The translations under genes and the position numbers were made by a program. Shown here one piece after another: positions 1,635 to 20,195 of a DNA stretch of 64,000 nucleotides (the first letter of the stretch is position 1; each line of letters opens with the position of its first letter). The notes under the pieces are model-generated. The model was given only the letters and a program-made list of their open reading frames with translations, was not told where the DNA came from and searched no databases. Origin of the DNA: Sphingobium sp. (GTDB taxonomy: Bacteria; Pseudomonadota; Alphaproteobacteria; Sphingomonadales; Sphingomonadaceae); the NCBI GenBank assembly GCA_022652485.1, contig JALCRK010000003.1, positions 35,798 through 99,797 of the forward strand, read 5' to 3'.

Positions 1635-2027
1635 TCAAGGCGGCGGAAGGGCTGGATTCTCTTTGGCGCGGGCAACGGCTGCGGCCTCAAGCCGCGCCTC
1701 GTCCTCGGTGATGCTGCCCGCCACGCGGGCCGCATCGGCATAAATGGTCAGCGGGAAGCGCCCTTCAAAACACAGGTCGCGCTCAATGGTGAGGCCGAAC
1801 GGCAGCGATACCGCTGCAATCTCGGCAAGGCTGGCCGAACCCATTTCGGGGCAACCAAAGCCAAGATCGCAAAGTCCGAACAAAATGTCGCCGTCTTCGT
1901 CCAGTTCGGAAAACAGCCAAGTGCCCGACCCTACGGGATTGAAGAATTTGACGACCGGCACATGATCGCCACGGCTTTTGCCGTTGGCGATGAGGCGGGC
2001 GCGCTGGTCTTGGGTGAGTAACAGCAT
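1635..2027 (-). CDS. DUF2958 domain protein (ICE/plasmid backbone)
   Basis: MLLLTQDQRARLIANG..VVKFFNPVGSGTWLFSELDEDGDILFGLCDLGFGCPEMG is the characteristic DUF2958 sequence. Internal ATG at 2027 chosen within track ORF 1635-2195. Confidence 0.8.
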   Translation of the reverse strand: MLLLTQDQRARLIANGKSRGDHVPVVKFFNPVGSGTWLFSELDEDGDILFGLCDLGFGCPEMGSASLAEIAAVSLPFGLTIERDLCFEGRFPLTIYADAARVAGSITEDEARLEAAAVARAKENPALPPP

Positions 2028-2040
2028 GGGGAAAATCCTT

Positions 2041-2250
2041 TCAAAACATCTCGATCTGATTGCGGGCGTTGGTGTCGAACAAGCCATGATCGGCGGGGCG
2101 CTGCGCCTTGCGCGGCTCCAGCGGCGCATTGGCGCGCATGGCGAGACGGTCGCGGGGCGTGATTGGCGCAACGCCGTAAACAAGCGTCTGCTCACCGATG
2201 GGCGTTTGCTCGGACGCCAGCCGGTCTTTGCAGGGGAGCGTGGCGGTCAT
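2041..2250 (-). CDS. hypothetical small protein (69 aa), ICE operon
   Basis: Track ORF. ATGA overlap with the upstream ORF (2247-2250) and only 13 nt before the DUF2958 start, which suggests translational coupling. No recognisable family. Confidence 0.4.
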   Translation of the reverse strand: MTATLPCKDRLASEQTPIGEQTLVYGVAPITPRDRLAMRANAPLEPRKAQRPADHGLFDTNARNQIEMF

Positions 2251-2453: not shown

Positions 2454-3362
2454 TCAGAGCGTGTCGAGCCAGGCGAGTACGCTTGTATCGCGCTTCCAGG
2501 ATGGCTTGCCGCCGGGTGTGGTCGGAACGGCAACCTGTTCCAATGCCTTCCGTTTCGTTTCCAGATTGGCCCTCGCATAGTGGTTGGTCGTGTCGAGGCT
2601 CACATGGCCGAGCCAACTGCGGATGACCGTGACGTCGACGCCCGCCGAGATGAGGTGCACGGCGGTGGCGTGCCGGAAGGCGTGCGGCGTCACATGCTTG
2701 GCACGCAGCGTCGGCGTGGTTTCTGCCGCAGCCCTCACGTAGGCGGCAAGCTTGAACCGGACACCCGAGGCACTGAGCGGTTCGCCATAACGGTTGACGA
2801 ACAGCCTCTGGTCCGGCGCCCGTGGCTGTCGCTCGAGCAGCTTACTCAGCAGCAGGACCGTTTCCGGCCAGAGCGGGCAGATGCGTTCCTTTCGGCCCTT
2901 GCCGGTCAGGCGCACGCAGCTCGGGCTTTCGAACCGGATCGCTTCGGGGCACAGATCGAGCGCTTCCTGTATTCGTGCGCCGCTGTTGTAGAGGAACGAG
3001 AGCAGCGCATGGTCGCGCATACCCTCGATCGTAGAACGGTCGGGCTGAGCGAGGATCGCCGTCACTTCCGCCGGATCGAGGTAGCAGGGCTCCGATACCG
3101 GCGCGCGCTTGATCGGGATGTTGAGGATTTCGACGCATTGCGCGATCGATGGGGGATACTTGGTGGCCACGAAGTGGAAGAAGCTGCGGATCGCGGCAAG
3201 TCGGCAGTTGCGCGTGCCGATCGTGCCGCCGCGGTCGTGTTCGGCATGGCTCAGGAACGCGGCGACCTCGCTGGCGGTCAGATCGGCCAGCGTGATCACC
3301 GCCACCTTCTTTCCAGCACGCTGCGCGACGAAACGCGCCGAATTGGCCGAGGAAGCCGCCAA
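2454..3362 (-). CDS. tyrosine-type site-specific recombinase, probably N-terminally truncated
   Basis: Catalytic-domain motifs are present: SGARIQE, TGKGRKER, HAFRHATAVH, WLGH, HYA. Only the last helices of the SAM-like N-domain remain. The track start is a TTG with an in-frame stop at 3375-3377, directly at the junction with the helicase remnant. Confidence 0.8.
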   Translation of the reverse strand: MAASSANSARFVAQRAGKKVAVITLADLTASEVAAFLSHAEHDRGGTIGTRNCRLAAIRSFFHFVATKYPPSIAQCVEILNIPIKRAPVSEPCYLDPAEVTAILAQPDRSTIEGMRDHALLSFLYNSGARIQEALDLCPEAIRFESPSCVRLTGKGRKERICPLWPETVLLLSKLLERQPRAPDQRLFVNRYGEPLSASGVRFKLAAYVRAAAETTPTLRAKHVTPHAFRHATAVHLISAGVDVTVIRSWLGHVSLDTTNHYARANLETKRKALEQVAVPTTPGGKPSWKRDTSVLAWLDTL

Positions 3363-5094
3363 AGACCGCGCGGCCTATATACGCCCGATCGTGCTGTTTC
3401 AGGCAGAGGACAAGAACCGCGAAGTGACGGTGGAGGTGTTGCGGCATCACCTGATTGAAACGCATCACATCGACGGCAACGCCATCGCGGTGGCGACGGG
3501 CGATCAGCGGGGTCTGGACGGGATCGATTTATTCAAGCCGGATTGCCCGATTGAGTATGTCATCACGGTTGAGGCGTTGAAAGAAGGCTGGGATTGCTCC
3601 TTTGCTTATGTCTTCTGCTCCGTAGCAAATATCAAGAGTGCAACGGATGCCGAACAGCTTTTGGGCCGCGTGCTGCGTATGCCTTATGCCACGCGGCGTA
3701 AGTCGCCGCTGCTCAACAAAGCCTACGCCAATCTGGTGTCGAAGAGCTTTGCCGAAGCCGCGAATACTCTGCGTGATCGCCTCGTTGATATGGGCTTTGA
3801 GGAGCAAGAGGCCGAGGCAAATATCGAAGCGGTGCAAAGCTCGCTAGATGAAGGTTTGTGGGGTGAGCGGCGGCGTTCAAAGCCGACAGCGCGTATTTCG
3901 ATTGAGGTAACACCGGAAGTTTTAGCCACAGTGAAAGCGGTTGCTCCTGAAAAGTTGAAGATTGAAGCTGCTGAGGGCACCGTTGCTGTCGTTGAGGTGA
4001 CAGGATTTTTGCGGAAATCTGAGAAAGACCTGATCTACGCCTCTTTGCCTGAAAAAGCCGCAAACCACTTCCGCGAAGTAGTTCAACGCTTTGAGGCCGA
4101 GAACGCCCATGAAGCATCGCCGGCTGAGCTGGGGCAGGAATTTGTCGTGCCGCGACTAATGGCATCAATCCAAGGCGAACTCATTTTCGCCGACGCGGAT
4201 ATAATGGGCGAGTATTTCGAGTGGTCGCTTGCCAGTCATTCGGCGCAGCTTTCGCGAGCTGAATTCGATGTGCGCGATACTTCTGAAGCGTTCGAGATCG
4301 ACCTGGATGGCGATAGTCTGATGGTAAGGCATAGCGACCAATTCGATCAAATGATGCTAGACGTGCCAGTCGATGGTTGGACGGAAGCGGGATTGGTCAA
4401 TCTGCTCACGAAGCAAGTTCGCCAATCGGATAGGGCCATCGGCCACAGCGAAATGGTCGCTTGGCTTAGCGACGTGATCCGTCACTTGACGGGTGCACGT
4501 GCGATTCCGCTGGCAACGCTGATGCGTTGTCGATTCATTCTGGCCCGCAAATTGCGGGATAAGATTGCGGCAATTCGCGCCGAAGTCCGCAAGGGCGTTT
4601 ATCAGCGCTGCCTGTTCGCGCCGGAAGCTCAACCTCAGGTGTCATTCGACAATGGTTTCCGTTTCCATGATGGCATGTTCGCAGGCGTTCCCTGCTATCG
4701 CGGTACCAAATATCGTTTTACCCGTCATTACTTAGGTTGGGACCGCGTGCCTGCATTTGACGGCAATGAAGATGGCGAGGAATTCAAAGCCGCACAATTG
4801 CTCGACAGCATCAGCGACGTGGAATTTTGGGTTCGCAACGTCGCCAAACACGTCGATGCCTTTTGGTTTCCTCTGGCGAATGGGAGAACTTACCCCGATT
4901 TTGTCGCAAAACTGGAAGACGGACGGCTGTTGGTAGTCGAATATAAAGGCGCACATTTGGTGGCTGATTCCCTGGAGAAGCAAGCCATCGGGCAACTCTG
5001 GCAAAAATCGAGCGAGGAAAAGGGCATTTATGTATTCGCGGAAAAGGAACGTAATGGGATGAATGTGAAAGCGCAGATACTGGAAGCGCTTTAG
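3337..5094 (+). pseudogene. 5'-truncated SF2 helicase (type III restriction Res-like) with a C-terminal PD-(D/E)xK nuclease-like domain
   Basis: Only the helicase C-terminal motifs remain (VITVEALKEGWDCSFAYV; QLLGRVLRMPY) plus a C-terminal YPDF..VVEYKG. There is no DEAD/DEAH N-half and no plausible start codon. Residues before ~3337 in track ORF 3109-5094 are antisense to the recombinase gene. Confidence 0.7.
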
Positions 5095-5125
5095 AAAGGC
5101 AGCCACCAAAGCTGGAGAAAATTGA

Positions 5126-6022
5126 TCAGCGGCGGCGGCTTTTACTCGGGAACTGAGGGTTCTCCCAAACATCAAATGTATCACGGAAGCCCTCATCGAC
5201 CTCGCTTTCGTCTTCGGTCTCGTCAACGATCAGCATAGTCATTTTCCACCCGCCCGCCAGACTCAGCGCTTGCTCATTGATGGATGATGGGCGCTCAAGA
5301 CTTGCAAGCCAGACGCCTCGGTCAACTTCATCCCATTCTGCCTCGCTGTTTTGGGAACCGGAAGATAGAGAGTTGTGTGGAAGCGGCTTGCCTATCGCAG
5401 CTTCCACAAAAGGGAAGCGACTTGGCTTATAAACGCGCCTTATTATGTCATCTTGGGACAAGATGATCGCGCACATGTCATGGTGATAGGTTGAGTAATG
5501 GATTGCAGCGGCCTCTTTGCTCACATCATACCGAGCTGCCAAGGCAACAACATTTTGAAGGTCGGGCGCACCTTGAGAACGCATGTCTGCCTTAAACATG
5601 GGCAACGGCATCAGCATTCCCGCGCTAAACCTGTTTGCCTCCGATTCCATCCTCTTATAACGATCATCGCGACCCGCTTTGCGGATGCTCATATCGGCTT
5701 TTGAACATGTAAATTGGCCAGATGTCCCAGGCTTATGCGCAGCTATTAGGAAGTGTCCGAGCTCATGACCGATGGTATATCGCTGCCGCAATCGGTTCGC
5801 TGTGCCATTGACAAGGATAACCCCGTCTCGACGTTCAGGCTGCGTAATCAGTCCACCCTCAAAATTCTGTGTGGTCATCCTGTGAATGTCGGTGATGCCG
5901 ACGGCAACGGCCAGATCTTCGATCGGCACCGGAATTTGTAAGTCCGGCAATTGCCGGAGAATTTCGCTAATTACCCTTTCTGGAGAAGTGCAATCAGCAA
6001 GCTCAATCCGATCAATCTGCAT
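5126..6022 (-). CDS. ImmA/IrrE-family zinc metallopeptidase (CapP-like)
   Basis: HExxH motif IGHELGHFL followed by ESEANRFSAGMLMP (DUF955/ImmA type). Its ATG directly abuts the stop of the upstream XRE gene (TAGATG). Confidence 0.85.
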   Translation of the reverse strand: MQIDRIELADCTSPERVISEILRQLPDLQIPVPIEDLAVAVGITDIHRMTTQNFEGGLITQPERRDGVILVNGTANRLRQRYTIGHELGHFLIAAHKPGTSGQFTCSKADMSIRKAGRDDRYKRMESEANRFSAGMLMPLPMFKADMRSQGAPDLQNVVALAARYDVSKEAAAIHYSTYHHDMCAIILSQDDIIRRVYKPSRFPFVEAAIGKPLPHNSLSSGSQNSEAEWDEVDRGVWLASLERPSSINEQALSLAGGWKMTMLIVDETEDESEVDEGFRDTFDVWENPQFPSKSRRR

Positions 6023-6349
6023 CTATTGCCCTGACTCGCGCTTCTTTTTCATACCTTCGATCATCAGTTCAATAAATTGCCGGTCATTTTCATCCAAATT
6101 CTGGAGGTCGCGATACATAACCACAAGCTGCTCATCCTGAGCGTCGCTAGGATCTTCGCCCACTAAAGAAGCGATGGACACACCAAAATGCCCAGCAATA
6201 CCTTTGAGGAGTTCAATGGAAGGGTTAGCGGCAGTGCCTTTTTCAAGCTCCCAAATGTGCGCTTTGGACGCTCCAACCGCATCGGCAACAACCTGAAGCG
6301 ATTGGCCTTTAGCTGTTCGCAGCTTTTGCAACTTCGTTGCTAACGACAT
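6023..6349 (-). CDS. XRE-family helix-turn-helix transcriptional regulator (CapH-like)
   Basis: KLRTAKGQSLQVVADAVGASKAHIWELEKG is a classic Cro/C1 HTH. It is divergent from the NTase operon and co-transcribed with the ImmA peptidase. Confidence 0.85.
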   Translation of the reverse strand: MSLATKLQKLRTAKGQSLQVVADAVGASKAHIWELEKGTAANPSIELLKGIAGHFGVSIASLVGEDPSDAQDEQLVVMYRDLQNLDENDRQFIELMIEGMKKKRESGQ

Positions 6350-6386
6350 TATTCACGCTCCATTTCCGCTTTACCACAGTTCGCGC

Positions 6387-6415
6387 CCTATAGGAATCGC
6401 AAATCGTTCGGTCAA
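6387..6415 (-). promoter_or_regulatory. candidate sigma70 promoter for the XRE-ImmA genes (TTGACC-N17-TATAGG)
   Basis: The reverse complement of 6410-6415 is TTGACC, followed by a 17-nt spacer; the reverse complement of 6387-6392 is TATAGG. The -35 lies inside the left arm of the 10-bp inverted repeat. Confidence 0.5.
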
Positions 6416-6446
6416 TCGAACAAATTTGTGAGGCCTATTGACCGAA
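6407..6446. promoter_or_regulatory. candidate operator: perfect 10-bp inverted repeat TTCGGTCAAT-N20-ATTGACCGAA enclosing the palindrome ACAAATTTGT (6420-6429)
   Basis: Read directly from the sequence. Each arm contains a TTGACC -35 hexamer for one of the two divergent promoters. Confidence 0.55.
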
Positions 6447-6466
6447 GCTCTCGTTCAGTGTATCTT
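6438..6466 (+). promoter_or_regulatory. candidate sigma70 promoter for the DUF2188-NTase-E2-patatin operon (TTGACC-N17-TATCTT)
   Basis: TTGACC at 6438-6443, a 17-nt spacer, TATCTT at 6461-6466. The palindrome TCTTAC-N6-GTAAGA (6463-6480) overlaps the -10 and predicted start. The first ATG is at 6501, with AGGA at 6491-6494. Confidence 0.5.
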
Positions 6467-6500
6467 ACGTTATTGTAAGACAAAATCGAAAGGATGATCT

Positions 6501-6722
6501 ATGGGCCGCAATCAACACATTGTGCCACACAAGGCCGGCTGGGCCGTAAAATCAGCGGGCGGTGAGCGAGCTTCATCCGTTCACACAACCCAGCTGGCCG
6601 CGATTGAGCGCGGTCGTGAAACAGCACGAAGCCAAAAGTCAGAACTTTTGGTTCATGGACGCAACGGCCAGATCCGGCAGCGCGATAGCTATGGGAACGA
6701 TGATTTCCCACCTCAAGGATAG
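6501..6722 (+). CDS. DUF2188 domain protein
   Basis: MGRNQHIVPHKAGWAVKSAGGERASSVHTTQLAAIERGRETARSQKSELLVHGRNGQIRQRDSYGNDDFPPQG matches the DUF2188 pattern (HVVP..GWAVK...RAS...TQ.EAI...A......EL.IHGRDG.IR...SYG.DP.PP.G). Confidence 0.75.
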   Translation: MGRNQHIVPHKAGWAVKSAGGERASSVHTTQLAAIERGRETARSQKSELLVHGRNGQIRQRDSYGNDDFPPQG

Positions 6723-6733
6723 GTGAACTTAAA

Positions 6734-7984
6734 ATGACGATCTATGATCCAATCCGACCAAATCGCAATTACTTGCCGATGCCAAGTCCGGGTGATGCAA
6801 TGCTAATGGACATCGCCCGGCGGGTCCAGATTTCACCTACTAAGCAGGGTGAGGCGGAACAACACTTCCAAGCATTATGTGCTTATGTAGATCGGGTTGG
6901 CAGCCCGCTCGAAAGCATGGTCATTGCATGTTATCCCGGTGGCAGCTTTGCAACCGGAACCGCAATTGCATCAAGTGTTTCCAAAGATCAACATGACGTC
7001 GATGTTGTGATGGAACTCGATGTTGATTCTAACAGTGATCCAAAGCAGACGCTAGGATTGCTATATGAGGCAATCAACAGCGTGCCGGGTTCTAGATATT
7101 TCGGTCGGGTAAAGCTCAACTCCCGATGCGTAACAGTCCACTATGACGATGGTGTCCATGTGGATTTGATGCCGCTCGCGAGACTCGTAGCGACGCCGGA
7201 AAAGGCAGGAAACCTTTTTCATTCAAAGCCACAATCTGGCGAAAGCTACCACAAGCAGGTCAACCCTTGGGGTTTCGCCGAGCATTTTAATGGCAAGACT
7301 GCCTATGATCCTGTGTTCGCCGCAATGTTTGAAGCCCGATCAATGGCGGACAGTGGCGTCCTTGCAAAGGCAGACGTGGAGCCACTGCCAGCGCAGGTTC
7401 CTCTTACTGAAAAGTCAGCCAGAGTCGTCGCTTTACAGCTTATCAAGCGGAACCGCGATGTCCGTTTTCGGAATCGGTCGAAGCGCAAACCACCTTCGAT
7501 TGTGCTCTCGGCTATGGCTTTAGAAGTCGCGCCTTTGGGGGCTGGACTGCTTGAGGAAGTTGTTTCCATTTCGTTGCACATTGCACGTAGGCTCCAAGAA
7601 AAGTCGACGCACAATGTTTGCATCGAAGTTAGAAACCCGTCGTTTGTTCCTGACATTTTTACGGACAGATGGCCCCAAAACCTTGGGGATCAGAATGAAT
7701 ATGTCCGCGATTTGGAATATCTCGTTCGCCAATTGGCCAGACTGAGAGATGCCAACATTTCGATCACCGAATCCAAAACAATTCTTGATGATCTGTTCGG
7801 TGAAACGCCTGCGAAATATGCGATCAACGAGATCATGGAACGCAGTCGGCACGAAATGGAAAGGGGCACAATGAGGTTCGGACCTACGGGAAGAGTTCAC
7901 GCCAGCGCTGCGGCAGCGATTGCGACAAACTGCACCACGGCGCGTGCTAGCACAAATATGGGCGGCGGATGGCTCCCGGACTAA
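6734..7984 (+). CDS. CD-NTase-like (cGAS/DncV-like, SMODS-type) nucleotidyltransferase
   Basis: Pol-beta NTase signature: YPGGSFATGTAI (G69-G-S71), DVDVVMEL (D88, D90), VHVDLMP (D144). Ala/Thr-rich C-terminal tail ending NMGGGWLPD. First enzymatic gene of an operon with E2-like and patatin genes. Confidence 0.7.
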   Translation: MTIYDPIRPNRNYLPMPSPGDAMLMDIARRVQISPTKQGEAEQHFQALCAYVDRVGSPLESMVIACYPGGSFATGTAIASSVSKDQHDVDVVMELDVDSNSDPKQTLGLLYEAINSVPGSRYFGRVKLNSRCVTVHYDDGVHVDLMPLARLVATPEKAGNLFHSKPQSGESYHKQVNPWGFAEHFNGKTAYDPVFAAMFEARSMADSGVLAKADVEPLPAQVPLTEKSARVVALQLIKRNRDVRFRNRSKRKPPSIVLSAMALEVAPLGAGLLEEVVSISLHIARRLQEKSTHNVCIEVRNPSFVPDIFTDRWPQNLGDQNEYVRDLEYLVRQLARLRDANISITESKTILDDLFGETPAKYAINEIMERSRHEMERGTMRFGPTGRVHASAAAAIATNCTTARASTNMGGGWLPD

Positions 7985-8469
7985 TCAGCATTGATCACCA
8001 GATTGGTGCCATGACGGAGCGATGGCCCGCCTTTGAAGTAGTGGCCAAAAATGATCGTTGCGCAGTCTGGGAAGGTAATCTCGATCCAGTCAGCAGACGA
8101 TATCGTGTGCGTGTCAGATATGAGGTGCCTGTGGCAATCGAGAACTTTTCACTACTCAATGTGCAGCCCCGGGTTCAGATATTGTCTCCAGTTCTTGAGC
8201 GCCATCCTGAGCATGACGAGGGGCCAATCCCGCATGTATATATAAACAGCAAAGAGCAATCATTGCCTTATCTGTGTCTTTTCGATCCTTTCAATGGGGA
8301 GTGGACTCCGTCAGATTTGTTGGCAGAAACAACCGTGCCTTGGACTTCGCGCTATCTCTATTTTTATGAAGGCTGGTTGTTGACCGGTAAATGGTCAGGT
8401 GGAGGCAGGCACCCGACACAGGAGGAACTGGATGGAAGTCGACAGCCAAAAGCCATCGCGGAGATCTGA
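7969..8469 (+). CDS. E2 (UBC)-like protein, stand-alone (type II-short CBASS E2-like)
   Basis: The core GPIPHVYINSKEQSLPYLCLFDPFNGEWTPSDL parallels the UBC HPN..(G)..C..(L)..W.P layout, with a candidate catalytic Cys103 (codon 8275-8277). 16-nt overlap with the NTase gene. An alternative start is at 8011. Confidence 0.6.
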   Translation: MAPGLISIDHQIGAMTERWPAFEVVAKNDRCAVWEGNLDPVSRRYRVRVRYEVPVAIENFSLLNVQPRVQILSPVLERHPEHDEGPIPHVYINSKEQSLPYLCLFDPFNGEWTPSDLLAETTVPWTSRYLYFYEGWLLTGKWSGGGRHPTQEELDGSRQPKAIAEI

Positions 8470-9490
8470 CGGGACACTCAACGAGCGGCGCCACCAATTG
8501 CCTTGGCCAAAGGATAGGAGATTCCGCATCCTCTCAATTGATGGCGGCGGCATTCGTGGGATATTTCCTGCCGCAATTTTAGCAGAATTTGAGCGGAAGT
8601 TTCTCAGCGGTGACTCTGTTGGTGATTATTTCGACCTAATTGCCGGGACATCGACAGGAGGCATAATTGCTCTTGGTCTGTCGATAGGGTTACCTGCATC
8701 CAAAATTCTTGATTTGTACTTTAGTAATGGAGCAGAGATATTTCCCACAGCCGCGCCTCCGTTCAAGAGGATAAAGCGATTTTGGGCGAAATTTCGATCC
8801 TTAAATTATTACCAGTATAGCCGAGAACCGCTCGAACGTGAGTTACGTCAAATTTTTGGAACACTTACCATCGGTGACGCACAACGCCGCCTTTGTATTC
8901 CTTCATTTGATGGTTTCACCGAAGTAAACGTCTTCAAAACACCCCATCATCCCGATTTTAGGCTTGATTGGCGTGAGGAAATGGTGACGGTCGCACTAGC
9001 AACCTCTGCGGCTCCAACGTATTTTTCGGTCTACAAGGACGGTCAGCGACGTTTCGCAGATGGCGGCGTTTGGGCGAATAATCCTGTGATGGTAGCACTG
9101 GTAGACGCACTCACTTGCAATATGATCGAACGCGATCAGATCGATATTCTCTCGATCGGTTGTGGCGATGCTGAGATTAAAATGTCCGACGCTCAAATTC
9201 TGCGTGGTGGGTTGTGGCACTGGCGAGAAATTGTCTCATCGGCAATGCACCTCGCCAGCCAAAACGCGCTTGGCCAGGCCGGGCTGCTCATTGGACGTGA
9301 TCGCCTAATTCGCTTGAATACGCCTCCCTTCGCTGGGGGTGCCATTGGGTTGGACGACGTGAAACGTGCGAACACTGAGCTACCAAAAATCGCAAAGATT
9401 TTGGCAGAGCAGAATGGACCATTAGTGGCCGCTAGGTTTTTCTCTAGTAAGGCAGAACCATTCTCTCACTTTCATGGCTCCAAAGTTTGA
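8432..9490 (+). CDS. patatin-like phospholipase (CapV-like effector)
   Basis: ILSIDGGGIRG (oxyanion hole), GTSTGG (GxSxG nucleophile), ADGGVWANNP (catalytic Asp). ATG at 8432 preceded by AGGAGGA. Track ORF 8399-9490 trimmed accordingly. Confidence 0.9.
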   Translation: MEVDSQKPSRRSDGTLNERRHQLPWPKDRRFRILSIDGGGIRGIFPAAILAEFERKFLSGDSVGDYFDLIAGTSTGGIIALGLSIGLPASKILDLYFSNGAEIFPTAAPPFKRIKRFWAKFRSLNYYQYSREPLERELRQIFGTLTIGDAQRRLCIPSFDGFTEVNVFKTPHHPDFRLDWREEMVTVALATSAAPTYFSVYKDGQRRFADGGVWANNPVMVALVDALTCNMIERDQIDILSIGCGDAEIKMSDAQILRGGLWHWREIVSSAMHLASQNALGQAGLLIGRDRLIRLNTPPFAGGAIGLDDVKRANTELPKIAKILAEQNGPLVAARFFSSKAEPFSHFHGSKV

Positions 9491-10599
9491 TTGTCAGCTT
9501 CAAGCGCAAGCCGGTAACGTGCGTAGCGCCTCTCGCCGGTGCGAATTAACGCACCCTTCTCGACAAGATCGGCCAAATCGCGGGTCGCGGTAGCAAGGCT
9601 GGCATCTGTGATCGTCCGGTAATTCCCGGCGCTCAACCCACCCGCGAATCCATCCGGCCCTTCACGGAACAAGCGAAGCAGCGCCTTTTCCTGCCGTTCG
9701 TTGATTTGCCCGCGCAAGCGATCAAGCAGCCGAGTCTTGTCGATCAGGAAGCGAATGCGAGTGATCGTCCGTGCCTGCGCCTCGATGACAATATCGGCAA
9801 ACCATGCCAGCCAGGCATTGATGTCGTTGCTCTGGCTCCCGAGCTGGAGGGCGGCGTAATAGGCTTTGCGGTGACGATTGATCGTTTCCGCGAGCGCCGT
9901 CAGCGTCGGGGCCGCAAGGTTTTGCGCCAACGCTTTTTCGGCAATCGCGCGCCCGATACGGCCATTGCCATCCTCGAAGGGATGGATGCTCTCAAACCAC
10001 AGGTGCGAGATAGCGGCTCGGGTGATTGCCGGAAGCGGTTTCGCTGATTCCGGTGCGCTGTCGTTAAACCATGCGATGAAACGGGACATTTCCGCTGGAA
10101 CGGTATCGGACGGCGGTGCTTCGAAATGCACACGCGGCGCATGAAGCGCGCCCGACACAATCTGCATCGCATCTTGATGGCGACGGTAACGCCCGACATC
10201 GGTAATATCGCGCCGCCCGTTCATCACCATCGCGTGCCAAGCGAACAGGGTCTGGTCGTCAAGCGGCGCAGCATGGTTGCGATACACATCGGCCATCAAT
10301 TCAGCGGCCCCGGCCTCTGCCGCACTGGCGCGGCGCTGGTCGGTGGCAAAGCCCAGATGTCGCGCGAGTGACGACTGGACGCTGGCGCGATCGAGGATTT
10401 CTCCCTCGATGGCGGAGCTATCGACCACTTCTTGTGAAATCAGTTCGATGGTCAGGCCATCGCGGGCATCAGCGTCAAGGTGGTGCAGCGCGCCAATGAC
10501 AACGCCCGAACCTTTCAGGAATTGCTCTTCGGACGCGCGGATGCGATCCGCGTCGAAGCGGAAATCAGGCCAATCGGGAAGCTGCCAATTCCAGCGCAT
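9472..10599 (-). CDS. Fic family protein (AMPylase-type) with a DUF4172-like N-terminus
   Basis: Fic motif HPFEDGNGRIGR. N-terminus MRWNWQLPDWPDFRFD. C-terminal winged-helix-like region. The 3' end overlaps the patatin gene 3' end by 19 bp (convergent). Confidence 0.9.
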   Translation of the reverse strand: MRWNWQLPDWPDFRFDADRIRASEEQFLKGSGVVIGALHHLDADARDGLTIELISQEVVDSSAIEGEILDRASVQSSLARHLGFATDQRRASAAEAGAAELMADVYRNHAAPLDDQTLFAWHAMVMNGRRDITDVGRYRRHQDAMQIVSGALHAPRVHFEAPPSDTVPAEMSRFIAWFNDSAPESAKPLPAITRAAISHLWFESIHPFEDGNGRIGRAIAEKALAQNLAAPTLTALAETINRHRKAYYAALQLGSQSNDINAWLAWFADIVIEAQARTITRIRFLIDKTRLLDRLRGQINERQEKALLRLFREGPDGFAGGLSAGNYRTITDASLATATRDLADLVEKGALIRTGERRYARYRLALEADNQTLEP

Positions 10600-10972: not shown

Positions 10973-12268
10973 CTACCGTCTCGCGGTTCTTGGCATTCGG
11001 GAGCGGCCGGAACGATCTCGTGTCGCGGCGGCTTTGGCGGCCCTTGCCGCAGCTTCGCTGTCGTCGCCGGGCTCTCGGGCCAATTCCCAACCGGTCATGC
11101 CCATGAGAACGCGATCTGCATGTTTCACAGTGTTCACATGGCCGTAATGCTGCTCGATCATCTTGACCGACGTTCCCATTTGTTCGGCAAGAATGTAAAC
11201 ATCGACGCCTTCTGAAAGGCGGAAGGTCGCATAGGTATGGCGGAAGCAATAGGTCGAACGGGAAATGCCGCTCGGCCCGATCCGCAAGTCCGATTCCGTC
11301 AACAGGTCTTGCACCGTGTCGCTGTAGAGATATTTGGCGGGCTTGCCGTTGATAATTGTGAAAACAGGATCGTCCGACTTGGTGGCCTTGGACAGCTCGC
11401 GAACGCGGTCGAGATAATCGCCGACACTCTTGGGAGCAACCAGTCTGCGGGACTTGCCTTTACCCTGCACAGATAAGACGACAATCTCCCTGCCGTCACG
11501 ATCCTTCGCCGCCATGATGTCTCGCCAGCGCAAGTTTCTCGCTTCTGGTGGACGCATCCCCGTGTTGCACATGATGAGCATGAAATTGTAGCAGATGGTT
11601 CGATACCAGATGCCCTGCGGCGATGTCGCCGCCTTGATCCATTTGCGGCCAAAGCTGTGCAGCTTACGATATTCCTCGGTCGTGAACTCATCGCGCCGCA
11701 TGGTTTTGAGCTTCGGCCTGCCCTCGAAGCGATGGCTCGCCGGAACATAGCGTTTGCTGATAGCGAAGCTCATCACCGCGTTGAAAGCACCCATTTCAAC
11801 GCCAATGGTTGCATCACTGACGATTGCCCGCGTCCGGCCCTTGCCGTTCTCCCGTCGCCATGTAGGATAATTTGACCAGCGGTCTTGACCAATTAGGTGA
11901 ATTTGCGTGCTTCCAATATAATCGTCCAAGACGCGGCGACAACGATTGGCGACGTTCTTGACGCTGTCGGCAGCCACCTCGCCCAACTTGGCGCGCCGCT
12001 GCTGCACAGCGATATATTCCTCTGCAACCTGGCGAAAAGGGCGGTTAAACACCGGCACATCATGCTTGATTCGAAAGCGAATGTCAGCATCGAGGTCGAA
12101 CGCTTGGTCATGCGCTGTCTGCCTGTCCGCCGTCCCTAACGCGATGGTCTTGTAGCGATCCTCCTTCGGGAGCTTGATGCGGCAATAGAAGTTGCGGTGC
12201 GCCACATCACCACGCCTGAAAATAATCAGGCCGGATTTAAGCTTCTCCTTGTCGGTGATAAACGCCAT
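10973..12268 (-). CDS. tyrosine-type site-specific integrase (island integrase)
   Basis: TGMRPPEARNLRWRDI, QGKGKSRRLVA, FRHTYATFRL, MGTSVKMIEQHYGHV (R..K..HxxR..H..Y). ATG at 12268 chosen (MAFITDKEKL); upstream alternatives at 12328 and 12376. Confidence 0.85.
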   Translation of the reverse strand: MAFITDKEKLKSGLIIFRRGDVAHRNFYCRIKLPKEDRYKTIALGTADRQTAHDQAFDLDADIRFRIKHDVPVFNRPFRQVAEEYIAVQQRRAKLGEVAADSVKNVANRCRRVLDDYIGSTQIHLIGQDRWSNYPTWRRENGKGRTRAIVSDATIGVEMGAFNAVMSFAISKRYVPASHRFEGRPKLKTMRRDEFTTEEYRKLHSFGRKWIKAATSPQGIWYRTICYNFMLIMCNTGMRPPEARNLRWRDIMAAKDRDGREIVVLSVQGKGKSRRLVAPKSVGDYLDRVRELSKATKSDDPVFTIINGKPAKYLYSDTVQDLLTESDLRIGPSGISRSTYCFRHTYATFRLSEGVDVYILAEQMGTSVKMIEQHYGHVNTVKHADRVLMGMTGWELAREPGDDSEAAARAAKAAATRDRSGRSRMPRTARR

Positions 12269-12436
12269 CGCGATGCTCCACTGTGCAGAATCTGTGTAGA
12301 TTAGCGTCGCAGGGGCGCGGAAATCCATAGCTGTGCAGGTGCTGTGTAGCTCTTTATAGCTTATTTTATTAGGCAATTCCAGTTATTTACTGTAATCCTG
12401 TCGTCCCGACCATTTTATATTTTCATATCAGATGAT

Positions 12437-12454
12437 TATCCGCTTTTGCGGATA
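12437..12454. repeat. perfect hairpin TATCCGC-TTTT-GCGGATA in the AT-rich island/core boundary region
   Basis: Read directly. It lies between the integrase start and the rplS terminator. Confidence 0.5.
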
Positions 12455-12519
12455 GGGAACGAAGGCTCGGGACACACCTCGTCAGGCACCAAAGCGATGC
12501 CCTAGATCCATACTCAACA

Positions 12520-12543
12520 TCATTCCCAAGTACGCGGGAATGA
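12520..12543. repeat. REP-like hairpin TCATTCCC-N8-GGGAATGA
   Basis: Read directly. Similar architecture to the hairpins at 30405-30469. Confidence 0.4.
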
Positions 12544-12564
12544 CGAGCGTTTGGCGAAGTTGAC

Positions 12565-12602
12565 CAGAAAGCAAAACAGGCGCACCCGAGCGGGCGCGCC
12601 TG
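12565..12602 (-). terminator. rho-independent terminator of rplS
   Basis: On the minus strand, CAGGCGCGCCCG..CGGGTGCGCCTG is followed by TTTTGCTTTC, ~30 nt after the rplS stop. Confidence 0.7.
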
Positions 12603-12632
12603 CTTGTAAAGCCTGAAGCTGTGTAAGGGCGA

Positions 12633-13013
12633 TCAGCCCTCGTTGCGGGTGTCGCGACGCTCGGCGATGCGGGCGCGCTTGCCGGTGCGGCCACGCAGAT
12701 AATAGAGCTTCGCACGACGCACGACGCCCTTGCGGACGACGGTGATGCTGTCGATGTTCGGCGAATAGAGCGGGAAGACGCGCTCAACGCCCTCGCCGAA
12801 GCTCATCTTGCGCACGGTGAAGTTCGACCCCATGCCCTTGTTCGAGCGGGCGATGCAGACGCCTTCATAGTTCTGAATACGGGTGCGTTCGCCTTCAACC
12901 ACCTTCACGCCGACGCGCAGCGTGTCGCCCGCGCGGAAATCCGGGATGGCATTGGCGGCGGCGGAGGTCGCCTTCGCGATTTCCTCGGCCTCGATCTGTT
13001 GAATGAGGTTCAT
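12633..13013 (-). CDS. rplS: 50S ribosomal protein L19
   Basis: [68 protein letters not shown] is a clear L19 sequence. Confidence 0.97.
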
Positions 13014-13055
13014 ATGACCTTCTTCCTTCGTCTCGTGTCGCGCGCCAGAGGCAGG

Positions 13056-13814
13056 TCAGTCCCGAACGCCCCTGTGGCGCTCCCAAAGGTCCGGCCTGCG
13101 TAACCGTGTATCATCCTCCGCCCTTTGCTTCCGCCAGGCGGCGATTTTCGCGTGATCCCCCGATCGCAACACTTCAGGGATCGCGCGCCCTTCCCACTCT
13201 TGTGGTCGGGTATAGTGCGGATATTCGAGGAGGCCGCTTTCGAAGCTTTCCTCGACTCCGCTTGAAGGCGCGCCCATTACCCCGGGAAGCAGGCGAATGC
13301 AAGCGTCGAGGATGGTGAGCGCCGCCATCTCTCCGCCGGAGAGGATGATATCGGTGAGGCTGACCTGTTCGATCTGCGGGCGAGCGTCGAACAGGCGCTC
13401 GTCGAACCCCTCGAAACGCCCGCAGAGAATGGTCACGCCGGGGCCGGAGGCGATCTCGCGGATGCGCGCCTGCGTAATGGGTTTCCCGCGCGGTGTCATG
13501 GCGAGGATGGGGGCGGCCTTTAATAGCCCCTCCCCTTCTGGGGAGGGGTTGGGGTGGGGCTTGCTCCGCTCCGCCATCCGCCGCTCCGCCTCATCCACGA
13601 CAGCGGAGAGTACATCGCAACGCAGCACCATGCCCGCGCCGCCACCTGCGGGTGTATCATCGACGGTGCGGTGCTTGTCCGTGGCGAAATCGCGGATCTG
13701 GATCGGGTCGCACGACCATATCCCTTGGCTTAACGCCCGCCCGGCGAGCGATAAACCCAGCGGACCGGGGAACATCTCCGGATAAAGGGTGAGGATTTGG
13801 GTGTGGAAGGTCAT
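13056..13814 (-). CDS. trmD: tRNA (guanine37-N1)-methyltransferase
   Basis: [63 protein letters not shown]. Contains an extra loop segment, [14 protein letters not shown]. Confidence 0.95.
13527..13548. repeat. palindrome CCCCTCCCC-TTCT-GGGGAGGGG inside the trmD coding sequence
   Basis: Read directly. It encodes the PSPEGEG part of the extra TrmD loop. Confidence 0.8.
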
Positions 13815-14311
13815 GCGACGAAAGCGGCGTCAATCACGGCCTGCTCCGCTTCGATCCGCGCGGCGTGGATGGGGACCATGAAACGCTTGCCCGGTTTGCC
13901 GTCCACTGCGGCGGGACGCTCGATTTCGAGGATGTCGCCCGCGCCGAAATTCTCGATCGCAACCACGTGCCCAAGTTCATCCCCTGCGTCAGAAACACAA
14001 GGCAAGTCTATGAGATCATGATGATAATATTCGCCATCTGCCAGAGGCGGCAGCGCCGAGCGGGGCACAGTGAGCGCGGTTCCGCGCAAGGCCTCGGCGG
14101 CATTGCGATCGGCTATCTCGGCAAAGCGCGCTACCGCGCCATTGGGGCCGTGGCGGACCGTCTTCAGGGTGAGCGAGCGCCCACCAGCATCGAAACTCTT
14201 ATAGGTGCGCAAGCTGTCCGGCCCGTCGCCGAACAGCTTCAAACGCACCTCGCCCGCCACGCCATGCGCACCGATGATGGCAGCAAGGGTGACGGGCTTG
14301 TCTTTATCCAA
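13811..14311 (-). CDS. rimM: ribosome maturation factor RimM
   Basis: [16 protein letters not shown].., [11 protein letters not shown]. Conserved position between rpsP and trmD, with a 4-nt overlap with trmD. Confidence 0.9.
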
Positions 14312-14314
14312 GGA

Positions 14315-14776
14315 TCAGCCCTCGGCCTGCTCTTCGCTGGCCTCTGCGGCGGGCGCTTCCTCGGCAGCAGGAGCTTCCTCGGCGGGCGCCTCTTCCACCG
14401 CGGGAGCGGCGGCAGCCTCACGGGCGGCTTCTTCAGCAGCGGCGAGCTTCTCGGCCTTCTCCTCTGCACGGTCCTTGGCCTTCTGGCCCGGCTCACCCTT
14501 GTTGGGGTTGCTGCGCGCGGCGCGCTCCTTCACGCCAGCGGCGTCGAGGAAGCGGGCTACGCGATCGGTCGGCTGCGCGCCGTTGGCGACCCAGTATTTC
14601 GCACGCTCGACGTCCAGAACGACGCGCTTCTCGTCGGTCTTGGCGAGGAGCGGATTGTAGCTGCCGATGCGCTCGATGAATTTGCCGTCACGCGGCGCGC
14701 GCACGTCTGCAACGACGATGCGGTAATAAGGACGCTTCTTGGAGCCACCGCGCGAAAGACGAATGGAAGTTGCCAT
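14315..14776 (-). CDS. rpsP: 30S ribosomal protein S16 with an Ala/Glu/Pro-rich C-terminal extension
   Basis: [43 protein letters not shown], followed by a low-complexity tail ([18 protein letters not shown]). Confidence 0.95.
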
Positions 14777-14821
14777 AAATTCTAACCTTACCTTTCTTGA
14801 AATTTGAAAATATTAAATAAA

Positions 14822-16300
14822 CTACTTTTTTCCGAAATTGCCGAAGCCCGGCGGGAGACCTCCGGGTGCTCCGCCGCCCAGACCCGGAAGGCCGCCACCG
14901 GCTCCCCCGCCCATGCCGCCCAGCATATCGCCAAGGCCACCGCCCAGACCACCCTTTCCGCCCATGAACATCTTCGCAAGGCCGCCCAATCCGCCCATCT
15001 TGCGGATCTTCTTCATCGCGGTTTCCATTTCCTGATGCATCTTGAGGAGCTTGTTCACCTCCTGCACCGTACGGCCCGCGCCCTTGGCGATGCGGATCTT
15101 GCGCTTGGCGTTGATGATCGCCGGGCGCTCGCGCTCCTTGGGAGTCATCGAGCCGATGATCGCATCCAGATGCACCAGCGCCTTGTCGTTGGCACCGCTC
15201 TGCGCCATCGCGGCTTGCGCTTTCTTGAGGCCTGGGATCATGCCCGCCATTGCGCCAAGGCCGCCCATCTGCTGCACCTGTTTCAGCTGCATCCGCAGGT
15301 CGTTGAGGTCAAATTGCCCCTTCGCCATTTTCTTGGCGAGCTTGTCCGCTTCTTCGGCGTCAATGACCTCCGCCGCCTTCTCGACCAGCGAAACGACATC
15401 GCCCATGCCAAGGATACGCTGCGAAACGCGCGCAGGGTGGAAGGGCTCGATCGCATCCAGCTTTTCGCCGGTGCCCGCGAACTTGATCGGCGCGCCGGTG
15501 ACGAAACGCATCGAGAGCGCCGCACCACCACGCGCATCACCATCCATACGGGTGAGCACCACGCCGGTCAGCGGCACCTGCTCGGTAAAGCTCTTAGCGA
15601 CGTTGACGGCGTCCTGGCCGGTGAGGCTATCAACGACCAGCAGGATTTCCTGCGGCGCGGATACATCCGCCACCGCCTTCATCTCGTCCATCAGCGCCTG
15701 ATCGACATGGAGGCGGCCCGCGGTATCGAGCATCACCACGTCATAGCCCTGCAACTTCGCGGACTGGAGCGCGCGGCGGGCGATATCGACCGGCTGCTGC
15801 CCCGCGACGATCGGCAAGGTGGCAACGTCGCACTGGGTTCCCAGCACCGCGAGCTGCTCCTGCGCCGCCGGACGGTTGACGTCGAGCGACGCCATCATCA
15901 CCTTCTTGCGTTCTTTTTCCTTGAGGCGCTTGGCGATCTTGGCGGTGGTGGTGGTCTTGCCCGATCCCTGCAAACCGACCATCATGATGACGGCAGGCGG
16001 CGTGACATCGAGCATCAGGTCGGAGCTTTCGGCCCCGAGGAATTCCGTCAGCGTATCGGAGACGATCTTGACGACCATCTGCCCCGGCGTGACTGAGCGC
16101 AGCACATCGCCGCCGACGGCGCGGTCGGTCGCGCGGTCGATGAACTCGCGCACCACGGGCAGCGCGACGTCCGCCTCCAGCAGCGCGATTCGCACCTCGC
16201 GCATCGCGGTGCGGACATCATCCTCCGTAAGCGCACCGCGCCCACGCAGCTTGTCGAATACCCCGGTCAGGCGATCGCTCAACGAGTCAAACATCGACAC
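14822..16300 (-). CDS. ffh: signal recognition particle protein Ffh
   Basis: MFDSLSDRL.., GLQGSGKTTTTAKIA, DTAGRL, TRMDGDARGGAALS, and a Met/Gly-rich M domain. Confidence 0.97.
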   Translation of the reverse strand: MSMFDSLSDRLTGVFDKLRGRGALTEDDVRTAMREVRIALLEADVALPVVREFIDRATDRAVGGDVLRSVTPGQMVVKIVSDTLTEFLGAESSDLMLDVTPPAVIMMVGLQGSGKTTTTAKIAKRLKEKERKKVMMASLDVNRPAAQEQLAVLGTQCDVATLPIVAGQQPVDIARRALQSAKLQGYDVVMLDTAGRLHVDQALMDEMKAVADVSAPQEILLVVDSLTGQDAVNVAKSFTEQVPLTGVVLTRMDGDARGGAALSMRFVTGAPIKFAGTGEKLDAIEPFHPARVSQRILGMGDVVSLVEKAAEVIDAEEADKLAKKMAKGQFDLNDLRMQLKQVQQMGGLGAMAGMIPGLKKAQAAMAQSGANDKALVHLDAIIGSMTPKERERPAIINAKRKIRIAKGAGRTVQEVNKLLKMHQEMETAMKKIRKMGGLGGLAKMFMGGKGGLGGGLGDMLGGMGGGAGGGLPGLGGGAPGGLPPGFGNFGKK

Positions 16301-16545
16301 CTCACAACGCGCGGAAATCCGCGGAAAAGCTTATACCCCAAAACGACAAGCGCGCCGGTGGGCGAAACCTCGCCGACCAGCGTCGATCCGTGGACCTTAT
16401 GGGCAATATGCCCAAGCCAGGGATGTCATCAGGGCGTCAACCGAACCCGAAGGCCCGCTCGACTGTCGCCGCCCATAAGCGAAAGTGCCGCCTTACGCAA
16501 GCGAAGCCGTGGACTTTCGCGCTATTCACCCCTACATGCGCGGCG

Positions 16546-17352
16546 ATGAGCAGCTTCGCCAAAATGCACGGTTTGAGAAATGATTTCGTGGTGATCGACG
16601 CGCGGGAAACGCCTGTCGAGATTACGGAAGCGCGCGCCCGCGCGATTGCGGACCGGCATACGGGCATCGGCTGCGATCAGTTGATCATTGTCGGCCAGTC
16701 CGACCGCGCGGATGTCTCAATGCGGATCTTCAATGCCGATGGCTCCGAGGTCGAGGCGTGTGGCAATGCGACACGCTGTATTCCGCTGTTCATTGGCAGC
16801 GACGTGACGATCGAGACCAAGGCCGGGATACTGGAAGCGCGGATTGCGGACGATGGCGTCAGTGTCGACATGGGCGCGCCACGGTTCGAGTGGCGTGAGA
16901 TTCCGCTGGCCTATGCGATGGACACCTATTCCCTGCCGACGACCTGGGATGATCTGCCGCCGCCCTTTTGCGTCAATGTCGGCAATCCGCATGTGATCTT
17001 CTTTGTGGGCGATCTCGATAAGGTCGATACCGCGCGACTGGGACAACTGATCGAGCATGATCCGCTTTTTCCGGCGCGAGTGAATGTCAATTTCGCGCAG
17101 GTGACGGGGCCGCACTCGCTACGCCTCATCGTGTGGGAACGCGGCGCCGGACTGACGCAGGCGTGCGGTACAGGGGCTTGCGCCACCGCTGTTGCCGCGA
17201 TCCGGCGCGGCCTCGCGCAGGGGCCGGTCACAGTCTCCCTACCGGGCGGCGATCTTGTCATCGACTGGCAGGCGGGCGGGCACATCCAGATGACCGGCCC
17301 TGCTAACCATGTCTTTTCCGGCGAGGCCGACTGGGGCGCTTTTGGTGGTTGA
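16546..17352 (+). CDS. dapF: diaminopimelate epimerase
   Basis: FAKMHGLRNDFVVID, GCDQLI, NADGSEVEACGNATRC, VNVGNPH, ERGAGLTQACGTGACA. ATG at 16546 within track ORF 16390-17352. Confidence 0.93.
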   Translation: MSSFAKMHGLRNDFVVIDARETPVEITEARARAIADRHTGIGCDQLIIVGQSDRADVSMRIFNADGSEVEACGNATRCIPLFIGSDVTIETKAGILEARIADDGVSVDMGAPRFEWREIPLAYAMDTYSLPTTWDDLPPPFCVNVGNPHVIFFVGDLDKVDTARLGQLIEHDPLFPARVNVNFAQVTGPHSLRLIVWERGAGLTQACGTGACATAVAAIRRGLAQGPVTVSLPGGDLVIDWQAGGHIQMTGPANHVFSGEADWGAFGG

Positions 17353-17378
17353 GGCGCACCGGCTCGTGACACAAGCTG

Positions 17379-19552: not shown

Positions 19553-20195
19553 GACTGCCTCCCCCCAATCGCCCGCCCCGCAAGCGAAAGCGAAGAACGC
19601 CAATCTCAGCCTCGCGCTCGATTTCGGCCCGCTGCTCGTTTTCTTCGTCGGCTTCAAGCTCATCGGCATGATCGCGGGCACCGCCCTCTTCATGGTGACG
19701 ATCACGCTCGCGGTGCTGATTTCGAAATGGAAGCTCGGCAAGGTCTCACCGATGCTGTGGTTGTCCGCCATTCTCGTCGTTTTTTTCGGTGGGCTGACAA
19801 TCTATTTCAATGACCAGCGCTTCATCCAGATCAAGCCGACGATCATTTACAGCTTTTTCGCGGTGCTGCTTCTCGGCGGACTGGCGAAGGGCAAGCCGCT
19901 GCTCAAATATCTGTTGCAGGCGGCCTATGACGGCCTCGACGAGACCGGCTGGCGCAAGCTCTCGCGTAACTGGGCGATCTTCTTCATTTTCATGGCCATC
20001 GCCAACGAAGCGATGCGCGCGAGCATGAACTTCGATACCTGGCTCACGGTCAAGGTTTGGGGCGTGACGATCGTGTCGTTCGTGTTTGCCGCCGCTAACA
20101 TTCCGATGCTGATGAAACACGGGCTGGTGCTGGACAAGCAGTCACCCGCTGCCGCCGAAACCGCAGTCGCGCAAGGTGACGCACCGCAGGGTTAA
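19545..20195 (+). CDS. yciB: intracellular septation protein A (YciB/IspZ family)
   Basis: Multi-pass membrane protein: LDFGPLLVFFVGFK.., IKPTIIYSFFAVLLLGG.., WRKLSRNWAIFF. ATG at 19545 overlaps the ftsY stop. Confidence 0.8.
   Translation: MPETASPQSPAPQAKAKNANLSLALDFGPLLVFFVGFKLIGMIAGTALFMVTITLAVLISKWKLGKVSPMLWLSAILVVFFGGLTIYFNDQRFIQIKPTIIYSFFAVLLLGGLAKGKPLLKYLLQAAYDGLDETGWRKLSRNWAIFFIFMAIANEAMRASMNFDTWLTVKVWGVTIVSFVFAAANIPMLMKHGLVLDKQSPAAAETAVAQGDAPQG

Follow-up and report, generated by a model that had tools for sequence, protein, structure and literature searches.

A probable E2-only CBASS operon under CapH/CapP control, headed by a portable DUF2188 gene, on a genomic island of Sphingobium sp.

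A six-gene locus was analysed on contig JALCRK010000003.1 of Sphingobium sp. (assembly GCA_022652485.1), within a stretch of 64,000 nucleotides (nt) that is referred to here as the window. The operon under study occupies positions 5126-9490 (Table 1). Four plus-strand genes encode a DUF2188 protein, a cGAS/DncV-like nucleotidyltransferase (CD-NTase, hereafter the cyclase), a stand-alone E2 and a patatin phospholipase, and diverge from the minus-strand genes capH and capP. A reading made from the sequence alone (the sequence-only reading) had proposed that these genes form an E2-only version of CBASS (the antiphage signalling system based on cyclic oligonucleotides), carried as island cargo and possibly representing an undescribed variant. 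Open reading frame (ORF) calls and a script check place all six genes where that reading had put them, with the same plus-strand spacing (a gap of 11 nt between the DUF2188 gene and the cyclase gene, then overlaps of 16 nt between cyclase and E2 and 38 nt between E2 and patatin), and a sequence check bore out that the stop codon of capH adjoins the start of capP. The motifs that it named are also present, namely GGS 69-71, DVD 88-90 and HVD 142-144 in the nucleotidyltransferase, HELGH from residue 86 in CapP, the E2 Cys103 codon at 8275-8277, and DGGG from 37, GTSTG from 72 and DGG from 210 in the patatin. The spacer between PHVY and YLCLFDP in the E2 had been counted as 11 amino acids (aa) and is 9 (I92-P100). 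In its longest form, the patatin ORF would start from GTG 8399; ATG 8432 is the better start, because an AGGAGG Shine-Dalgarno sequence precedes it and homologues align from its residue 1.

Table 1. Features of the locus and its island surroundings (window positions)
Feature	Position	Strand	Basis
capP, Zn-metallopeptidase of the M78/ImmA-IrrE family	5126-6022	-	PADLOC, Pfam, PDB 7T5T alignment
capH, XRE-type helix-turn-helix (HTH) repressor, 108 aa	6023-6349	-	PADLOC, Pfam, PDB 7T5U
Divergent regulatory region, 151 bp	6350-6500	.	Promoter scan, inverted-repeat scan, 8-region alignment
DUF2188 (PADLOC candidate PDC-S16), 73 aa, promoter-proximal leader gene	6501-6722	+	Pfam, PADLOC
CD-NTase, BdCdnG (clade G) type, 416 aa	6734-7984	+	PADLOC, Pfam, PDB 7LJN
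Stand-alone CBASS E2, 166 aa	7969-8469	+	PADLOC, PDB 8HSB_B, Foldseek
CapV-type patatin phospholipase effector, 352 aa	8432-9490	+	PADLOC, NCBIfam, Pfam, PDB
Conserved 17-mer CGTTCGGTCAATCGAAC, contains GTTCG-N6-CGAAC, candidate CapH operator	6405-6421
-35 TTGACC	6438-6443	+	Promoter scan
Second CGTTC(A/G)GT copy, CGTTCGGT	6452-6459		Alignment
-10 TATCTT	6461-6466	+	Promoter scan
DUF4172-Fic protein, convergent with capV, overlap 19 nt	9472-10599	-
Island tyrosine integrase, 18 nt from junction	10973-12376	-	Pfam Phage_integrase 7.2e-12
tRNA-Pro(CGG) 3'-end remnant, 19 nt, 3 mismatches, right-hand att junction	12394-12412	+
Truncated Res gene of a type III restriction system, matching its 898-position profile at 308-890 only	3109-5094	+
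Second tyrosine recombinase, abuts/overlaps Res gene	2454-3362	-
DUF2958 protein	1635-2195	-	2.4e-42

The cyclase matches the PADLOC model Cyclase PDLC00800 over its full length (1.4e-143) and exceeds the Pfam cut-offs for SMODS (5.3e-10, 40.2 bits against 26.5) and for the DncV-like nucleotidyltransferase family (7.9e-06, 27.2 bits against 24.9), in line with its proposed place among the CD-NTases. A non-signalling nucleotidyltransferase of the MNT, KNTase or antitoxin type was ruled out by these passed thresholds and by the CBASS cyclase match (1e-143). The best match in the PDB is BdCdnG of Bradyrhizobium diazoefficiens (7LJN, 2.1e-54, residues 10-410), followed at a greater distance by SmCdnG of Serratia marcescens (8HSB_A, 5.7e-11). 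In an alignment of 22 sequences, the catalytic residues G70-S71, D88, D90 and D144 are invariant, as are D307xxxD311 of lid-3 and the C-terminal G410-G411, which is followed by a tail of 4-7 residues in the family (GWLPD here). The lid-3 motif aligns with E305/D309 of BdCdnG, residues that touch the donor GTP (PMC10442399). On the strength of the best PDB match and the lid-3 (D/E)xxxD motif, the enzyme is probably a CdnG, and CdnG10-like.

The protein encoded downstream had been read as a ubiquitin-conjugating (UBC)-type E2, and this is supported by both sequence and predicted structure. It is matched over its full length by the PADLOC E2 model PDLC00877 (5.2e-55) and aligns with SmE2 of S. 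marcescens (8HSB_B, 1.3e-16), with Cys103, His89 and His148 on C101, H87 and H152; all three residues are invariant in 30 homologues. An AlphaFold2 (AF2) model (predicted local distance difference test score, pLDDT, 77; predicted template modelling score, pTM, 0.76) gave SmE2 as the top PDB match in Foldseek (8yjy_B/8hsb_B, E 2e-8, template modelling (TM) score 0.65), and only weak matches to the eukaryotic UBE2V1/UFC1 (E >= 0.095, TM ~0.40). A protein lacking the UBC fold was ruled out by the SmE2 alignment together with the top Foldseek match. No family was matched in a local Pfam-A scan; since homologues carry the precomputed family PF26395 'E2-CBASS', this blank reflects the library version rather than the protein.

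The effector assignment also stands. The patatin matches the PADLOC phospholipase effector model (3.4e-116), Pfam Patatin (5e-28) and the NCBIfam equivalog CBASS_lipase, 'CBASS cGAMP-activated phospholipase', with 257 bits against a cut-off of 200, and it aligns with the CapV structures 9KH7 and 8ZR9 at 1e-35 to 1e-41. Its oxyanion loop (DGGGIRG 37-43), nucleophile Ser74 (in GTSTG 72-76) and Asp210 (in DGG 210-212) are all present. In some metagenome copies of the island, the patatin is called as two fragments and the neighbouring Fic protein is shortened (L044, 14329-15322 and 13218-14096), and in another the cyclase call is 24 aa shorter (L040, 15831-17009). These split or short calls could be either strain-level decay or errors of assembly or gene calling.

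The divergent gene pair fits the CapH/CapP-like control that had been suggested for the locus, in its PADLOC and structural matches as well as in its divergent orientation and shared intergenic region. CapP matches PADLOC capP over residues 12-266 (2.2e-52, a 242-position profile) and Pfam Peptidase_M78 (7.6e-15), with HELGH at residues 86-90. In its alignment with Thauera CapP (7T5T, 1.4e-13), FTCSKADM lies on FQCSDADM, so that Cys106 corresponds to the cysteine-switch residue Cys113; this loop occurs in about one third of CapP proteins (bioRxiv 10.1101/2022.04.27.489752 / 10.64898/2026.05.16.725639). CapH matches PADLOC capH over its full length (5e-25), Pfam HTH_31 (2e-07) and HTH_3 (1.3e-06), and has the CapH HTH domain 7T5U as its best PDB match (6.9e-8), ahead of SinR and DdrO. 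In characterised systems, CapH represses the CBASS promoter and is cleaved by CapP once single-stranded DNA (ssDNA) has activated the latter (bioRxiv 10.1101/2022.04.27.489752, 10.64898/2026.05.16.725639). Those systems, from the type III CBASS of E. coli MS115-1 and from Thauera sp. K11, share with the window a divergent HTH and M78 pair on the CBASS promoter region, the HExxH motif and the cysteine-switch loop. However, they control type III (HORMA/NucC) CBASS, and the operator sequence in the window is lineage-specific.

A promoter scan places a sigma-70-like plus-strand promoter in the intergenic region. When this region was aligned with seven homologous capH-proximal regions (eight in all), four blocks were invariant or nearly so and the remainder diverged: a 17-mer CGTTCGGTCAA(T/A)CGAAC, the -35 element TTGAC, the CGTTCGGT copy and the -10 element TATC(T/A)TACG. 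From this pattern we infer that the conserved blocks are CapH operator sites bracketing the operon promoter. The window also holds a perfect 10-bp inverted repeat, TTCGGTCAAT / ATTGACCGAA at 6407-6416 / 6437-6446, which in its full form is window-specific and not kept in relatives. This repeat sets a TTGACC hexamer on both strands, and the pair could be -35 boxes placed back to back, of which one would serve the operon and the other, more speculatively, capH; the minus-strand -10 is a poor one. By eye, a minus-strand promoter for capH can be sketched whose -35 falls within the 17-mer; it fails the -10 criteria of the scan and is speculation.

To place the locus among its relatives, window proteins were mapped by tblastn and phmmer onto 20 loci encoding cyclase relatives, with one genome per species. 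The order cdnG-E2-capV is kept in all 20 and in further metagenome loci, so its description as novel does not hold. Upstream of it, a divergent capP-capH pair is present in seven loci (L001-L004, L007-L009) and just a divergent M78 peptidase in L006; a DUF2188 gene lies between capH and the cyclase in L007-L009 only. The complete six-gene unit of the window is also found on metagenome contigs L028 and L031. L001-L004, whose cyclases are the closest among the genome loci (75-76% identical), keep the regulators, promoter and operator and are without DUF2188. The other twelve loci (L005 and L010-L020) are without both DUF2188 and CapH/CapP. On these sequence comparisons, the cyclase-E2-effector order is the rule; CapH/CapP is a common but not obligatory companion, and DUF2188 too may be missing. 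The same recurrence of gene order, together with full-length profile E-values from 5e-25 to 1e-143, indicates that the gene set is not a chance resemblance.

The PADLOC and profile hidden Markov model check that had been advised for the six proteins matched all of them over their full length, and Pfam, PADLOC, the SmCdnG/BdCdnG and SmE2 alignments and Foldseek support an E2-only (type II short) CBASS. ThiF, Prok-E2_B and JAB had no match in any flanking ORF scanned, the operon being bounded by capP and the convergent Fic gene. The missing E1 and JAB had been counted as a novelty; the absence of both defines the type II short class, and the locus therefore does not deviate from it. E2-only systems make up 616 of 2,199 type II systems, and their cyclases exceed the E1E2/JAB ones in length, with 74% in clade G and BdCdnG cited as a member (bioRxiv 10.1101/2022.05.25.493364 / PMC12948482). 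The length of the window cyclase agrees with this.

The description of E2-only systems as the least understood CBASS class is likewise outdated, as their mechanism and structures have been published and a Pfam family (PF26395 E2-CBASS) exists. The S. marcescens E2 trims away whatever follows the cyclase's conserved C-terminal Gly and forms a Gly-Cys101 thioester, which is converted into an isopeptide on the E2's own tail lysine, an inhibited state; the E2 also builds poly-cGAS chains, by which synthesis is activated. Cleavage of the tail, formation of the thioester and the pH-dependent conversion of the bond all require C101, H87 and H152, and protection against T4 is lost on mutating any of these residues or the Gly (all from bioRxiv 10.1101/2022.05.25.493364 / PMC12948482). 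Nor is the combination of parts undescribed: the CapH/CapP Table S1 of Lau et al. (2022) has 141 'Type II short' entries, many of which combine a phospholipase effector with a cysteine switch, among them the sphingomonads Sphingopyxis macrogoltabida, Novosphingobium nitrogenifigens and Altererythrobacter atlanticus.

Two E2-CBASS operons are among the closest known systems. The S. marcescens system (SmCdnG-SmE2; 8HSB/8YJY/9KKB) shares with it a stand-alone E2 with the Cys/His/His set, the best structural match of the E2 model, and a cyclase with a conserved C-terminal Gly and a tail that, in the window, would be removable. However, the cyclase of that system is a remote relative (E 6e-11), its acceptor Lys159 falls on Asp155 in the window, the effector is a two-transmembrane (2TM)-SAVED protein plus an exonuclease rather than CapV, and CapH/CapP are not among its four listed operon genes. 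Closer in sequence is the BdCdnG operon (7LJN; clade CdnG10; E2-CBASS), which has full-length cyclase homology, the lid-3 (D/E)xxxD motif and the C-terminal ...T-x-x-G-G tail. The cdnG-E2-capV order is shared by Bradyrhizobium loci, whose cyclases are ~52-54% identical to that of the window. Unlike in the window, CapH/CapP and DUF2188 are not detectable within 8 kb of the Bradyrhizobium-type loci L010-L020 (n=11), although some Bradyrhizobium systems with CapH/CapP and a sigma factor are listed in Table S1 of Lau et al. (2022). The product reported for BdCdnG is 3',3'-cUMP-GMP (PMC10442399), and the BdCdnG-BdE2 complex appears in the E2-CBASS papers as an AlphaFold 3 model only. In the literature searched, the only whole-system study of an E2-only CBASS concerns S. 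marcescens; none was found with CapV and a BdCdnG-type cyclase, and no experimental characterisation of the E2 or CapV of the Bradyrhizobium operon was found.

Overall, the locus is very probably an intact type II short CBASS abortive-infection system with a CdnG-type cyclase and CapV, gated by a divergent CapH/CapP DNA-damage switch and carried on a tRNA-Pro-integrated island. Its proposed workings are inferred, step by step, from homology to characterised systems. CapH, bound to the conserved operator that overlaps and flanks the -35 and -10 elements, would repress DUF2188-cdnG-E2-capV. During phage replication or DNA damage, ssDNA would bind CapP and displace the Cys106 loop, leading to cleavage of CapH and induction of the operon, with DUF2188 co-induced as its first gene, presumably as a member of the portable regulator module rather than of CBASS. 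The Cys103/His89 dyad of the E2 would then cut the cyclase tail after Gly410/Gly411 and carry the cyclase as a thioester on Cys103, from which it would pass to a lysine and be parked there in an inhibited, isopeptide-bonded state. Upon infection, the E2 would produce isopeptide-linked poly-cyclase chains as the active form. With GTP as donor (lid-3 D307xxxD311), the cyclase would make a cyclic dinucleotide that contains G; the likeliest is 3',3'-cUMP-GMP, the product of BdCdnG, and the alternative is 3',2'-cGAMP, that of SmCdnG. This product would activate CapV (Ser74/Asp210), which would degrade membrane phospholipids, and the infected cell would die.

Several points weigh against this account. 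The isopeptide acceptor K159 of SmE2 has Asp155 as its counterpart in the window, and K151 has Arg147; because of these replacements, the parking lysine of the window E2 is uncertain. Lys161 in the C-terminal tail is a candidate, at the level of a guess from the conserved tail lysine in the family consensus. The C-terminal E2-binding motif of the cyclase (a helix and a three-stranded sheet) is predicted from full-length homology to BdCdnG. Both the nucleotide made and the ligand of CapV are extrapolated from that ~52-54% identical relative, and the sole E2-CBASS studied in vivo has a 2TM-SAVED effector and 3',2'-cGAMP, not CapV (bioRxiv 10.1101/2022.05.25.493364 / PMC12948482). Finally, CBASS leaves the DUF2188 leader gene unaccounted for.

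The DUF2188 protein is clearly recognisable as such (PF09954; Pfam 8.3e-24, 84 bits against a cut-off of 22; PADLOC PDC-S16 7.6e-35). Its AF2 model (pLDDT 85.5) has a beta-beta-beta-alpha-beta-beta topology. No PDB sequence match was found, and the model has no significant PDB fold match, the best being the Cas1 N-terminal domain (E 0.16, TM 0.36), which is taken as noise. A search of a viral library gave a single significant match, an unnamed 210-aa protein (E 1.9e-6, 39% identity).

The contexts of DUF2188 are more informative. Close homologues (55-77% identical) were traced to their contigs, and the regulators beside them were re-checked by phmmer. In L028, L029, L031 and L007-L009, capP-capH lies divergent upstream and an E2-CBASS downstream, and in L034/L035 the same pair precedes a CapV-CD-NTase-Cap2-Cap3 array. 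Elsewhere, the gene stands between an HTH gene with a 315-aa protein and a set of Multi_ubiq, Prok-E2_E, JAB/ThiF and BubE (L033), or follows an HTH-M78 fusion and precedes a SIR2 system (L036/L037), DUF8370/8371 (L032) or no recognisable cargo (L024/L025). In L026/L027, capP-capH is found upstream with no cargo recognised. Further homologues lie between a BrxR/WYL repressor and small ORFs (L022/L023) or downstream of AAA ATPase and Peptidase_S8 genes, with neither regulator nor cargo recognised (L021); L038 likewise has neither. As these homologues head operons with at least five types of cargo, DUF2188 is best described as a portable leader gene of DNA-damage-gated operons and not as a part of CBASS. 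CapH/CapP operons beginning with DUF2188 have been noted before, for example in Tsuneonella flava MS1-4 (Lau et al. 2022, with reference to Burroughs & Aravind 2020). This alphaproteobacterium, related to the sphingomonads, shows the same capP-capH / DUF2188-cargo arrangement, but its cargo consists of guanylate cyclases and a TIR protein that binds cyclic nucleotide monophosphates, not CBASS.

This bears directly on the idea that the locus is an undescribed E2-CBASS variant, with an unusual gene order and with DUF2188 as a built-in subunit, either a sensor or a cofactor of the cyclase or E2. The gene lies close enough upstream of the cyclase to be co-transcribed, and several genera share the layout of six genes (L007-L009, L028, L031). 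However, the closest genome loci (L001-L004) keep capP-capH-cdnG-E2-capV without it, the twelve loci that lack CapH/CapP lack it as well, and its 55-77% identical homologues lead Cap2/Cap3 CBASS, Bub-like ubiquitination, SIR2 and DUF8370/8371 cargos, or none. As the gene order is also the family norm, this reading is improbable. The DUF2188 gene had been described as an extra gene built into a CBASS variant; instead, it travels with the regulator module and is optional among E2-CBASS loci.

Alternatively, DUF2188 may belong to the DNA-damage regulatory module, as a feedback factor, an anti-repressor or an ssDNA-binding co-sensor acting with CapH/CapP or with BrxR/CapW-like WYL repressors, and be neither effector nor CBASS subunit. 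Consistent with this, in most of ~10 distinct contexts it is the first gene divergent from CapH/CapP, their fusion or a BrxR/WYL repressor, whatever the cargo, and it is present beside a fusion regulator with no further recognisable cargo (L024/L025). On the other hand, L001-L004 share CapH/CapP and the conserved operator and promoter without DUF2188, so the switch does not need it; two contexts (L021, L038) lack a recognisable regulator, and the PDB fold search returned no DNA-binding fold. We regard this role as possible, though doubtful. Bolder still, and rather unlikely, is the proposal that DUF2188 is a dedicated part of DNA-damage-gated switches, invariably the leading gene next to CapH/CapP, to a CapH-CapP fusion or to a WYL-type (BrxR/CapW-like) repressor. 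In that role it would tune the switch for many unrelated cargos (E2-CBASS, Cap2/Cap3 CBASS, Bub-like ubiquitination, SIR2), for example as an ssDNA-binding co-sensor, a positive-feedback anti-repressor or a brake on leakage.

A further, equally tentative suggestion is that DUF2188 is a minimal defence or toxic effector induced by DNA damage, downstream of which larger systems have been inserted, so that two independent defences share one switch. PADLOC lists it as a single-gene candidate (PDC-S16), units of a regulator and DUF2188 only exist (L024-L027), and in the literature it is listed as a putative Thoeris-associated effector and adjoins the Pa011 CBASS operon. Yet it is a soluble protein of 73 aa without catalytic or membrane motif, and no experimental evidence for such an effector was found in the literature searched.

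The genomic setting of the CBASS operon agrees with the earlier description of it as island cargo. GC content drops from 0.62-0.66 in the flanks to 0.49-0.54 over positions 4001-9000. Comparison contigs, found by lookup of the window's TrmD, include near-identical ones with the same island and one without it (L042). This conspecific contig is 99.4% identical to window 12394-23814, and the match breaks off 19 nt inside an intact tRNA-Pro(CGG), at its 3' end (L042 11403-11479), which corresponds to the remnant beside the integrase gene. The L042 genes downstream of the junction (radC, thyA) are absent from the window; therefore, the island exceeds 12.4 kb. Its left end and the intact tRNA-Pro must be situated outside the window, beyond position 1, and no att direct repeats were found inside the window.

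Other genes on the island are less easily placed. The Fic protein, which is possibly a second island defence gene, matches PADLOC SoFic (5.8e-45), but reaches only 53 bits in NCBIfam SoFic against a cut-off of 550. No Mod gene was seen beside the Res gene, which in L041 is further broken by a Transposase_mut insertion sequence at about window 4780-4787. DUF2958 is a family associated with conjugative or integrative elements, which may mean that the island continues to the left and is part of a larger mobile element.

The state of the island raises the question of whether the operon is itself a decaying, non-functional passenger. The Res gene lacks its N-terminal third, and the metagenome variant L044 has split patatin and shortened Fic calls. 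Nevertheless, all six ORFs match their profiles over the full length and retain each catalytic residue, several independent contigs carry the locus with 99.9-100% conservation, and misassembly could account for the split calls in L044. Decay of the operon is thus very improbable.

In summary, as a CBASS locus, this operon adds little, as its class, mechanism, regulator pair and their combination in sphingomonads are already catalogued. What value is left lies in the pairing of nucleotide and effector in this subfamily, whether cUMP-GMP or cGAMP to CapV. The position of DUF2188 behind three kinds of DNA-damage-responsive regulator and ahead of at least five types of cargo poses a question that is cheap to test. 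If DUF2188 did prove to be a component of the switch, this locus would be a handy compact model.

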